Below, one piece after another: positions 48,486-50,987 of a stretch of 64,000 bases of DNA. The position numbers were made by a program, and so were the translations under genes. The stretch's first letter is position 1. The number at the start of each line of letters is the position of its first letter. Location: positions 65,657-129,656 of the forward strand of contig JANXBX010000006.1 in assembly GCA_025060595.1 (NCBI GenBank), given 5' to 3'. Below the pieces are notes generated by a model, which did not search any database, had not been told where the DNA came from, and was given only the letters and a program-made list of their open reading frames with translations. Source of the stretch: Synergistota bacterium (GTDB lineage Bacteria; Synergistota; GBS-1).

Positions 48486-49318
48486 AGGAAACTTTTTATA
48501 TACCTTACTATCTCCCCTGGTATGTCCACACCCGTAGGGGCAATGCTATTTCTAAACTCAGGGGAGTGATTTATCTCGTTAACCAAGAGCTCACCCGAGG
48601 GTGTCTCAAAAATATCAAGGGCTACCACCTCTCCATCTACAGCACGAGCTGCTCTTTCAGAAAGCTCAACTAGCTCAGAAGTTAATGGGCAGTTTCTAGC
48701 TTCACCACCACGAGCGGTATTTGTTATCCAGTGAGGCGAAACCCTATATATGGCAGCAACACACTTGCGTCCTATAACGAAGCTTCTTATATCCCTGCCA
48801 GGCTTATTCACATACTCTTGAATATAGAAGATCTTCTGAAGCCCATTTCCTAAAGTGTACTTATGTTCCAATACCGCCTCAGCCGCATCTTTATCATTAA
48901 CCTTCGCTAAAAGCCTTCCCCAAGAACCATTAACAGGCTTAACAACCGCTGGATATCCAACCCTCTCTATTGCCTTTAAAGCATTCTCTGGAGAAAAAGC
49001 AAGATAAGTACGCGGAACAGGAATACCATTTTCCACCAAGAGAAGAGTTGTTATAGCTTTATCTAGACAGCTAGATATTGCCCTAGAGGAACTTATTACC
49101 CTTATTCCGTTACTTTCAAGGACCCGCGATACATAGAAAGCATGAGAGGCTGAAATAACGCGGTTTAAAACCACCGCAGGGGGTTTAATAGAAAGCTCCC
49201 CATTAGCAAAGAGAGGAAGTAAAAGACTATCCTCGTGAAGAAGATTTAGAGCAACACCCTCCCTTTCAAAGGCATCGATAAGCAACTTTTCCTCAACTCT
49301 TAACCTTGAGTAGACCAT
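48482..49318 (-). CDS. lysX: RimK-type ATP-grasp ligase LysX (LysW--alpha-aminoadipate / glutamate ligase)
   Basis: 278 aa. ATP-grasp ([27 protein letters not shown]). Paralogous to the gene at 47444. Confidence 0.8.
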
Positions 49319-49368
49319 CCAAGCCTGCGCTTCCCCAAGTCAACCACCCTCCTTAAAAGATAGATATA

Positions 49369-49410
49369 AAAAAAGCCCCGCTCACCCTGGGAAGGTGAGC
49401 GGGGCTTTTA
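49369..49410 (-). terminator. Intrinsic terminator in the leader of the lysX operon, the attenuator
   Basis: Minus-strand RNA AGCCCCGCUCACC-UUCCCAG-GGUGAGCGGGGCU, a 13-bp perfect stem, then UUUUUUU. It sits between the leader ORF and lysX. Confidence 0.6.
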
Positions 49411-49430
49411 AAAATCCCTAGAGTTTAGCT

Positions 49431-49544
49431 TCAGCCTAAAGCTGAAGCAATAAACCCACCTTCCCAAGCCCTAAGCTTAGGCTTCTTGTAACCCTTGTTC
49501 CGCTTCAAAAGAGACTTGGAAAGATGAGCCTTTAAATTAATCAC
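49431..49544 (-). CDS. Putative Lys-rich leader peptide (37 aa) of the LysW operon
   Basis: AGGGAGG, then a 9-nt spacer, then GTG. The ORF reads VINLKAHLSKSLLKRNKGYKKPKLRAWEGGFIASALG. It has 7 Lys including a KK-P-K run, and 2 Arg. It lies downstream of a TTGACA-18-TATATT promoter and upstream of the terminator. Confidence 0.45.
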   Translation of the reverse strand: MINLKAHLSKSLLKRNKGYKKPKLRAWEGGFIASALG

Positions 49545-49577
49545 CCCAATTAACCTCCCTCACCAATTATCGCGCAT

Positions 49578-49607
49578 AATATAGCATACTACTCTCTTCC
49601 CTGTCAA
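49578..49607 (-). promoter_or_regulatory. Sigma70-like promoter for the leader and lysX operon
   Basis: On the minus strand, TTGACA (49602-49607), an 18-nt spacer, then TATATT (49578-49583). Confidence 0.4.
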
Positions 49608-49775
49608 GGGTTTTTGAAATCAATATTTAAAGAAATTTACACCAGGGAAGTCTCAGAAATAACACCTTAAAAATAATCTCCTTTCAAACTTATAGACACA
49701 TAAATAGTCACTATCTATAATATTATTAACTTAAGCTGTAGATATTAAGCAAAATCTTAAGGAGGGATACCTCTT

Positions 49776-50987
49776 ATGGATCTTTCCTCTTTAATATTTA
49801 TTATAACTTATATACTTTTAGCAATAGGACAGCCACCTATCTTTCGAATAGATAGAACGGGTGCGGTACTTATAGGCGCTACAGCTATGTTAGCATTAAA
49901 GGTTATATCCATTCAAGAAGCTTACTCGGCAATAGATTATAAAACGATAGCTACACTTTTCGGCTTAATGGTCTTGGTGGCCCACTTTCGACTATCAGGA
50001 GCTTTAAATCTATTAGTAAAATACCTGATTTCAAAAGTTAAAAACCCCTCTGAACTTTTATATTTTATAATCTTTAGCGCTGGTATTCTCTCAGCATTTC
50101 TAATGAATGATACGATATGCTTACTTTTCACTCCTCTGGTTTTAAAGATAACCAAGATATCAGGATTAAATCCTAAACCCTTTCTCTTAGCCCTATGTAT
50201 GTCTGCAAATATTGGAAGCGTTGCCACGATCACTGGAAATCCCCAAAACCTTATAATAGGTATCTCCTCTGGACTAACATATAGTGAATTCTTTTACTAT
50301 CTTTTCCCGGTTGCCATATTAGGGCTCCTCACTCTAATAACAATACTCAAAATAGCTTACAAGAAAGAATTATCAAAGCCTATAAATAACGAAGTAAAGC
50401 TTAAATTTAGATACAAAAAACCCATCGTAATTAAATTCTATATCATCGCTCTATTATGTTTAATTGGCTTCTTTATAGGGCTACCCATACAAGGAGTGGC
50501 CATGATTACCGCCTGCCTACTTTTGATTACAAGGAGAATAAAACCTGAAAAAGTTTACAATCTGATAGACTTCAAGCTTTTAGTCCTTTTCATAGGCCTA
50601 TTCATAATAATAAAATCCTTCGAAAACTCAGCCCTATTTAAGCATCTCTCAGAAATCTCTGGAACCTTTCTAAAAAACCCACTTACCTTTGTATCATCGG
50701 TTACCATTTTATCTAACGCTGTAAGTAACGTCCCTGCAGTCTTAATATTCAAGCCCTTCATAGAAACCCTATCTTTAGGCAAGGAAGCATGGCTATACCT
50801 CGCCATGAGCTCAACATTAGCAGGAAATCTTACCGTACTTGGCTCTATAGCAAACATAATAGTCATAGAGTCAGCCTATCCGAAGGTAAAAATATCCTTC
50901 CTTGAGTACCTAAAGCTTGGCTTACCGGTAACCACTCTTACGCTACTTATTGGAACCCTATGGTTAAAAATAGCTTTACTCTGGTGA
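49776..50987 (+). CDS. ArsB/NhaD superfamily anion permease
   Basis: A 403-aa membrane protein. The SANIGSVATITGNPQNLIIG motif is typical of ArsB/NhaD/CitMHS-type permeases. Confidence 0.55.
   Translation: MDLSSLIFIITYILLAIGQPPIFRIDRTGAVLIGATAMLALKVISIQEAYSAIDYKTIATLFGLMVLVAHFRLSGALNLLVKYLISKVKNPSELLYFIIFSAGILSAFLMNDTICLLFTPLVLKITKISGLNPKPFLLALCMSANIGSVATITGNPQNLIIGISSGLTYSEFFYYLFPVAILGLLTLITILKIAYKKELSKPINNEVKLKFRYKKPIVIKFYIIALLCLIGFFIGLPIQGVAMITACLLLITRRIKPEKVYNLIDFKLLVLFIGLFIIIKSFENSALFKHLSEISGTFLKNPLTFVSSVTILSNAVSNVPAVLIFKPFIETLSLGKEAWLYLAMSSTLAGNLTVLGSIANIIVIESAYPKVKISFLEYLKLGLPVTTLTLLIGTLWLKIALLW

Follow-up and report, generated by a model that had tools for sequence, protein, structure and literature searches.

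The DNA analysed here, hereafter the window, is a stretch of 64,000 nt from contig JANXBX010000006.1 (assembly GCA_025060595.1) of a Synergistota bacterium of the GBS-1 lineage, and all coordinates are positions in this window. Its minus strand encodes a LysW-type lysine/arginine operon, lysX-lysW-lysX2-lysYZJK, and the region 5' of lysX contains on the same strand a promoter, a small open reading frame (ORF) rich in Lys codons, several inverted repeats and an intrinsic terminator (Table 1). The arrangement of these features suggests that the element is a ribosome-mediated (leader-peptide) transcription attenuator of the operon, a reading that we consider quite probable. An earlier note on this DNA had proposed such a Lys-codon attenuator in front of the LysW operon, and this core proposal was supported by all the comparative tests that were run.

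Table 1. Features of the leader and of the operon downstream of it in the window.
Feature	Position	Strand	Sequence or remark	Basis
-35 hexamer	49607-49602	minus	TTGACA; invariant in all 7 aligned relatives	promoter scan
Extended -10	49586-49578	minus	TGcTATATT; relatives read TATATT or TATTTT in the -10	
Leader Shine-Dalgarno (SD) sequence	49560-49554	minus	AGGGAGG; 9 nt before GTG; GGAGG-like in all relatives	
Leader ORF	49544-49431	minus	GTG start, 37 codons plus TGA; peptide VINLKAHLSKSLLKRNKGYKKPKLRAWEGGFIASALG; kept in relatives	ORF reading
Segment 1 (5' strand of helix P1)	49531-49515	minus	AGGCUCAUCUUUCCAAG; codons 5-10	minimum free energy (MFE) fold, RNAalifold
Small hairpin in P1 loop	49511-49492	minus	CUUUUG / CAAGGG; K14 and R15 codons (AAGCGGAA) in its loop	RNAalifold
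Regulatory codon cluster 1	49505-49494	minus	AAG CGG AAC AAG (K14 R15 N16 K17); only synonymous AAC/AAT change	relatives
Regulatory codon cluster 2	49487-49476	minus	AAG AAG CCU AAG (K20 K21 P22 K23)	relatives aligned
Segment 2 (pairs with segment 1 or segment 3)	49468-49452	minus	CUUGGGAAGGUGGGUUU; codons 26-31	folds, pairing counts
Hairpin H	49448-49428	minus	8 bp, GCUUCAGC/GCUGAAGC; encloses stop codon 49433-49431	fold, -12.9 kcal/mol
Segment 3 (antiterminator 3' strand)	49400-49388	minus	GCUCACCUUCCCA; inner half of terminator 5' arm plus loop	inverted repeat, pairing counts
Intrinsic terminator	stem 49409-49371, U7 49374-49368	minus	stem plus U7	fold, -32.8 kcal/mol; inverted repeat
Second SD sequence	49354-49347	minus	AAGGAGGG, perfect; invariant in relatives	sequence
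12-codon ORF	49338-49300	minus	TTG start, other frame, overlaps lysX ATG; TTGGGGAAG invariant in all relatives	sequence
lysX	49318-48482	minus		NCBIfam scan, gene calls
lysW	48485-48297	minus		NCBIfam scan, gene calls
Second LysX-family ATP-grasp ligase (LysX2)	48337-47444	minus		NCBIfam scan, gene calls
lysY/argC	47447-46419	minus		NCBIfam scan, gene calls
lysZ/argB	46441-45515	minus		NCBIfam scan, gene calls
lysJ/argD	45597-44395	minus		NCBIfam scan, gene calls
lysK	44429-43392	minus	operon span 49318-43392	NCBIfam scan, gene calls

Promoter, leader ORF and codon content

The minus-strand promoter described in the earlier note was found as stated, with TTGACA and TATATT (49583-49578) separated by 18 nt, 11 of 12 positions matching the consensus and a TG that makes the -10 an extended one. 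Transcription would start near 49571/49570, ~26 nt before the leader ORF. The ribosome-binding site and the GTG-initiated ORF with seven Lys codons were likewise present (49560-49431), the Lys codons being those at positions 5, 10, 14, 17, 20, 21 and 23, and every one of them is AAG. Codons 14-23 read K-R-N-K-x-x-K-K-P-K and contain 5 Lys in 10 codons, for which the binomial P is 3e-4 when the Lys usage of the window (6.9%) is taken as reference. In 45 long ORFs of the window, CGG is the rarest Arg codon (2% of Arg codons), and it is the codon always found at R15.

For comparison, six distinct further versions of the leader were collected from metagenome-assembled genomes and from Logan, ENA and JGI assemblies, with a LysX identity of 81-91%. 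The nearest named relative carries the label 'bacterium GBS-1' (unclassified Bacteria) and the others are labelled 'Synergistetes bacterium' by NCBI. A metagenome scan with LysX returned the GBS-1 contig as the sole addition, which was already in the set, and one new variant was recovered when the leader peptide, padded to 42 aa, was used as a protein query. Four residues (K14, R15, K17 and K21) do not vary among these relatives; at positions 10 and 20 either K or R is found, and two relatives have R at position 18. The second codon cluster has K or R at position 20, K at 21 (AAG or AAA), P at 22 (CCU or CCC) and K or G at 23. Because the K and R codons follow this pattern, the rare CGG is invariant and the operon carries two ligases, sensing of both Lys and Arg is suggested, and we regard the case for such dual sensing as evenly balanced.

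Predicted RNA structures and the proposed switch

The MFE fold of the leader consists of a helix (P1), the hairpin H and the terminator, with a z of -5.2 against dinucleotide shuffles. P1 is formed by segment 1 with segment 2 over 17 bp (-19.8 kcal/mol when taken in isolation) and would be the anti-antiterminator, whereas H is the short hairpin that had been seen earlier at the leader stop codon. The terminator has a stem of 16-18 bp; the 13-bp G+C-rich core and the U7 tract noted before were both found, and only its spacing had to be corrected, the final U being 49 nt from the lysX ATG (49318) and not ~20 nt. The antiterminator, which had been placed at leader codons 27-30, pairs UGGGAAGGUGGGU (49466-49454) with GCUCACCUUCCCA (49400-49388) over 13 bp, 10 of them in an exact Watson-Crick run, with -20.1 kcal/mol. 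Segments 1 and 3 are near-identical in sequence. Thus segment 2 has two alternative partners: P1 (1:2) and the terminator (3:4, segment 4 being the terminator 3' arm) can coexist, and the antiterminator (2:3) rules out both. P1, H and the terminator were still the predicted optimum at 85 C, which is relevant because the relatives may come from hot springs. In these predictions the element is a switch of the trp type (1:2 / 2:3 / 3:4) in which the Lys/Arg codons lie between segments 1 and 2. The features by which leader-peptide attenuators are recognized on sequence were found together here, namely an ORF with its own ribosome-binding site, clustered cognate codons, an intervening terminator and a mutually exclusive antiterminator.

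The effect of a ribosome on this choice was modelled by constrained folding, the ribosome being assumed to protect roughly nt -12 to +15 relative to the P site. Blocks at codon 14, at codon 15 and at codon 23 each changed the prediction from P1, H and the terminator to the antiterminator. In the mechanism that we propose, scarcity of charged Lys-tRNA, and probably also of the tRNA reading CGG, would stall the ribosome at K14-R15-N16-K17 or at K20-K21-P22-K23. A ribosome stalled at K14/R15 would cover the 3' end of segment 1 and one stalled at K20-K23 would lie directly against segment 2 at its 5' end; at both places, being within the 46-nt loop of P1, it would hold segments 1 and 2 apart. Free segment 2 would then pair with newly transcribed segment 3 and keep the terminator from forming, and transcription would read through into lysX-lysW-lysX2-lysYZJK. 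With ample supply the ribosome would reach the UGA in hairpin H and P1 would re-zip behind it, and the terminating ribosome would occupy the loop that the antiterminator must close, leading to formation of the terminator and a stop at the U7 tract. An untranslated leader would adopt P1 and the terminator by default. We infer ORF translation, stalling, steric exclusion, their timing and the response to Lys and Arg from the arrangement of these segments.

This differs in one step from what the earlier note had supposed, namely coverage of codons 27-30 by a ribosome that has reached the stop codon. That claim did not hold, as the assumed footprint of such a ribosome spans ORF nt ~97-124 and abuts the antiterminator strand at nt 79-91 (segment 2 being nt 77-93). 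The favouring of the terminator in the off state stands, and the route to it would be the 1:2 helix P1, which had been missed, together with steric exclusion instead of coverage.

Conservation of the leader in relatives

The small ORF and the terminator are both kept in the six relatives. The ORF is exactly 37 codons in 6/6 of them with zero indels over 114 nt, unlike the 5' untranslated region and the spacer before the terminator, where indels are present. At the start column GTG, TTG or ATG is found, the two other frames carry stops in each sequence, and the variation at N16, K21 and P22 is synonymous. Unguided RNAalifold recovered P1, H and the terminator. In P1, 6/17 pairs are changed on both sides and thereby compensated, a count that is inflated by the shared ancestry of these few and closely related sequences, for which shuffle statistics likewise overstate independence. 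For P1, H and the terminator together, 91% of the alignment cells are paired, against 35-58% when the 3' partners were slid by 1-3 columns, and H is 100% paired. The antiterminator is paired in 96.7% of cells, with segment 3 invariant except at its last aligned position. The substitutions in segment 2 all fit both partners, giving C-G pairs with segment 1 and G-U pairs with segment 3, a dual compatibility that is expected where one strand alternates between two partners. RNAalifold also placed the small hairpin in the P1 loop (alignment columns 70-75 with 84-89), which is weak in the window and has two G-U pairs.

The same helices could belong to a ligand- or protein-binding RNA switch, in which P1 and the internal hairpins form an aptamer or a protein site whose occupation locks segment 2 and causes termination, the ORF being incidental. 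P1 with two small hairpins does give a junction-like fold, the loop UUGAAGCGGAAYAAG shows almost no nucleotide changes, and outside the helices there is little conservation of the peptide. The conserved start column, length and lack of indels, the ORF frame being the sole open one, and the synonymous changes at N16, K21 and P22 all argue for a translated leader instead. Furthermore, a search of 4227 Rfam families at the gathering threshold gave no match over the window or the seven related loci, and at E<=10 over 48800-50200 only sub-threshold matches (CopA, sX13, PyrR and the Thr and Phe leaders) were obtained, which are carried by the terminator hairpin. Together with the unrelated leaders described in the next section, some of which have no P1 and share with the window only a K/R-rich ORF and a terminator, and whose K/R content tracks the ligases, these findings make an RNA switch of this kind improbable in our view.

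Several observations weigh against the attenuator. Only six distinct, closely related sequences stand behind the covariation counts, the evidence is drawn from sequence and prediction, and the source organisms are uncultured. The third-position bias in the ORF is weak, the variable columns numbering 16 at the first, 18 at the second and 23 at the third codon position. The L13-K17 block is nucleotide-invariant and able to form the small hairpin, and its invariance may for this reason reflect constraint on the RNA rather than on the codons. The K-to-R swaps at positions 10 and 20 would fit dual sensing and mere positive charge equally. In the relatives the spacing from the SD sequence to the start codon is 9-11 nt, but it is 14 nt to the ATG in the L165/L166 subclade. 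The terminator is conserved, but in the bacterium GBS-1 relative (L003 2430-2450) the U tract is interrupted (GGGGCTTTAACATTTT) and termination there may be weaker. With the footprint block at codons 17-21 the folding model still closes P1 around the blocked stretch, and the opening of P1 by a ribosome at these codons is for this reason a matter of steric reasoning. Finally, under the assumed footprint a ribosome at the stop codon leaves segment 2 physically uncovered.

Leaders of other LysW operons

The regions 5' of lysX at 134 other loci with enough flank were scanned for small ORFs with a high content of any single amino acid and a terminator downstream. The ORFs found were K-rich at 17 loci (a GBS-1 relative being one of them) and R-rich at 10, and every other amino acid accounted for at most 3; on the reverse strand, taken as control, there were 0 K-rich and 1 R-rich. 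GBS-1 aside, the listed hits with a taxon label are all Chloroflexota (Anaerolineae, Caldilineae and Phototrophicales), and the metagenome contigs are unlabelled.

This enrichment, specific to certain amino acids and to the sense strand, bears on the view that there is no regulation at all, the terminator being leaky or insulating and the Lys-rich ORF and pairings fortuitous, or the ORF encoding a small functional protein or a peptide substrate. AAG and AAA codons are common in an A+T-rich intergenic region such as this one, and the sub-threshold Rfam matches all come from the terminator hairpin alone, as would be expected on that view. It is opposed further by the dedicated and conserved promoter 5' of the terminator, by the segment 2 that stays complementary to both partners in the relatives, and by a peptide too variable for a structural product, and we hold it to be highly improbable. 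Other combinations of a small ORF and a terminator in the window (e.g. 33522-33466 and 62236-62135) were treated as chance; these two precede non-biosynthetic genes.

Two types of leader were distinguished in Chloroflexota. In type A, e.g. MIKFVESKKKQVKKPALRSG followed by a stop codon (L040), the antiterminator strand spans the stop codon, and the leader precedes a one-ligase operon, lysW-lysX-lysY-lysZ-lysJ. Lys-only leaders that end in the consensus ..KKKQxKKPxxRSG directly before the stop codon lie ~280-400 nt 5' of lysX in L040, L139, L050, L045, L126, L042, L023, L118, L038, L071 and L079, and their antiterminator strand is made of the last codons plus the stop codon, set against the following terminator. 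Type B leaders, e.g. MTSFGKRNSKSNLPKRPRARRSLWGVSPCRMLLWE followed by a stop codon (L022 1099-1206), have 35 codons with segment 1 at codons 5-10 and precede two-ligase operons. The type B family, with the motif ..FGKRNSK....KRPRARRSLWG.., was found in L013, L019, L022, L047, L112 and L056 and has the 1:2 / 2:3 / 3:4 structure; its antiterminator is paired in 100% of cells. In addition, a second Lys-rich small ORF (..KKAKK..) with terminator-like hairpins was noticed ~450-520 nt 5' of lysX in L040, L042, L023, L034, L024 and L015, and these upstream ORFs may be tandem attenuators in series.

When K and R were counted in the best 12-residue window of each leader, the one-ligase leaders (n=19) had means of 4.1 K and 1.05 R and the two-ligase leaders (n=10) means of 1.8 K and 3.6 R. 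At least two R were present in 5/19 one-ligase and 10/10 two-ligase leaders (Fisher P = 2e-4, without correction for phylogeny). The K/R mix therefore tracks ligase number as sensors of tRNA charging predict, and an aptamer or a charge-based peptide would not do so.

The type B leaders resemble that of the window in length (35 vs 37 codons), in the place of segment 1, in the two-ligase operon downstream, and in the KRN and K[KR]P[KR] motifs and the W-G codons in segment 2; the distance from the end of their antiterminator strand to the last nt of the stop codon is ~24 nt, compared with ~21 nt in the window. All the Chloroflexota leaders share with it the position before a lysW/lysX biosynthesis operon. 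They differ in that type B is dominated by Arg and the window leader by Lys, and in the first operon gene, which is lysW in Chloroflexota and lysX in the window. An nhmmer profile of the clade leaders gave no significant nucleotide similarity to the Chloroflexota leaders among 158 other loci, because of which we claim that the design and the motifs (KRN, K[KR]P[KR]) are shared, and make no such claim for descent.

The [KR][KR]P motif (window 49481-49479; L040, L022 and others) occurs in three leader types without evident mutual similarity. Pro is encoded in it by CCU, CCC, CCG or CCA, a synonymous variation, and the basic cluster includes an N or Q. Simple hunger-codon sensing calls for neither the motif nor the N/Q. 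Such features would be explained if the basic peptide itself (K-R-N-K ... [KR][KR]-P) arrested the ribosome in response to free Lys, Arg or an intermediate, in the manner of TnaC or SpeFL and not through tRNA charging, since the motif recurs in dissimilar leaders with synonymous Pro codons and the N or Q is conserved. The sign of the response would be wrong, however, as the end product, in arresting the ribosome, would favour the antiterminator, and an abundance of Lys would thus induce the biosynthetic operon. The rest of the peptide is variable, and the choice between K only and K plus R follows the make-up of the operon, as codon sensing predicts. Nascent-peptide arrest is on this evidence as improbable as the RNA switch, or slightly more so.

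In a broader reading, the element would be a multivalent Lys+Arg attenuator, the first known to read Arg codons for an amino-acid biosynthesis operon, and one member of a wide class of LysW leaders in Chloroflexota and this lineage, as yet undescribed, whose K/R mix matches one or two ligases; the [KR][KR]P nascent chain would help to set the stall. We put this forward tentatively, and with rather more doubt than confidence.

Comparison with known regulatory systems

In the E. coli trp attenuator, 1:2, 2:3 and 3:4 pairing decides between readthrough and termination. The window leader has the same four segments, with 1:2 as anti-antiterminator (and possible pause hairpin), 2:3 as antiterminator, 3:4 as terminator, and predicted termination when untranslated. 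The window leader carries its regulatory codons in the loop that separates segments 1 and 2, whereas those of trp are inside segment 1; its stop codon is past segment 2 and within an extra hairpin, unlike that of trp, and the amino acids sensed differ. The E. coli thr leader reads Thr and Ile, the ilvGMEDA leader reads Leu, Val and Ile, and the leu leader uses the rare codon CUA. In common with these, the window leader has codons for more than one end product of a shared pathway and a rare codon, CGG, at the putative sensing site. We know of no Lys+Arg combination among the classical systems and of no amino-acid attenuator that reads Arg codons.

Lysine genes are also controlled by the lysine riboswitch (L-box), which senses free lysine directly by a large five-helix aptamer. 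It resembles the window leader in feedback on lysine genes and in the choice between terminator and antiterminator in a 5' leader. Neither the lysine riboswitch (RF00168) nor the T-box (RF00230) gave a match at the gathering threshold in the window, nor were they among the E<=10 matches listed for 48800-50200. Thr_leader (RF00506) and Phe_leader (RF01859) scored 17.9 and 17.7 bits against a gathering threshold of 55, and their alignment rests on the terminator hairpin.

The nearest parallel is found in Thermus. Tsubouchi and colleagues reportedly described in 2005 attenuation by a leader peptide with tandem Lys codons for the lys cluster of Thermus thermophilus, which to our knowledge is the only known case of lysine leader-peptide attenuation. 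On a T. thermophilus-type contig we found the leader ORF MLARAKKLGRRGVG, followed by a stop codon, upstream of hcs (L177 2990-3034), and the alternative pairing was seen. The kinship that the earlier note had drawn to this system is correct as far as a Lys-codon ORF followed by a terminator before alpha-aminoadipate/LysW genes is concerned, and in both the 3' part of the ORF supplies the 5' strand of the antiterminator. It does not extend to the sequence or to the design: no similarity between the two leaders was evident by reading and folding, no formal alignment or profile search having been made. The Thermus leader has 14 codons with one KK pair, against 37 codons with two clusters (5-7 Lys and a rare Arg codon) in the window, and it sits before hcs and not before lysX. 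It resembles Chloroflexota type A in that the antiterminator strand extends across the stop codon, and it has a two-structure design with no segment 1 helix, where a ribosome at the stop codon would cover the antiterminator strand. Rfam has no family for the Thermus leader. On the same contig (L177 4231-4651), a hicA/hicB toxin-antitoxin pair lies on the opposite strand between the hcs and homoaconitase genes of the lysine cluster.

No description of LysW-operon leaders, including the Chloroflexota types A and B, was found in the searchable literature. The principle is a textbook one, and the version in the window and the Chloroflexota leaders appear to be undescribed; new are the amino acids that would be sensed, the lineages concerned and the relation to ligase content. 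Documented leader-peptide attenuation, a classic example of translation controlling transcription, is concentrated in Proteobacteria and Actinobacteria. According to a 2010 survey, leader peptides had not been shown outside these two groups, save for the his leader of Firmicutes predicted in the survey itself (PMC2965389). If the attenuator is real, the mechanism would also work in deep-branching uncultured lineages and in Chloroflexota, and its target would be the carrier-protein (LysW) route, by which both lysine and arginine are made. Leader codon content could then mark, from sequence alone, Lys-only and Lys+Arg LysW operons, which are hard to tell apart from the ligase sequences, and annotators would have grounds to keep basic ORFs of 20-40 codons 5' of lysW or lysX.

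The terminator-lysX interval and the ligase genes

Between the terminator and lysX lie the second SD sequence and the 12-codon TTG ORF of Table 1. The lysX ATG has no SD sequence of its own, and one relative (L004) reads TTA at its position. This arrangement suggests that lysX may be translated by coupling to, or reinitiation from, the 12-codon ORF. A programmed frameshift fusing the TTG ORF to lysX was considered and dropped, as there is no slippery heptamer. No tRNA genes were found within the window.

For both ligases of the operon, T. thermophilus LysX (3vpd/1uc8) is a better match than the 3vpb chain, taken here to be Sulfolobus ArgX. Compared with the first ligase, LysX1, LysX2 is the more distant from all the Chloroflexota ligases, including the paralogous pairs of the two-ligase loci, and the ligase duplications in the window lineage and in Chloroflexota may thus have been independent. 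The Lys or Arg specificity of the two ligases is not assignable by similarity. In one further locus (L169 2001-2837, GCA_053989855.1), the leader of L166 is followed by a single hybrid ligase gene, and lysW and the second ligase are missing; the hybrid would be the product of either recombination between the paralogous ligases or a chimeric assembly.

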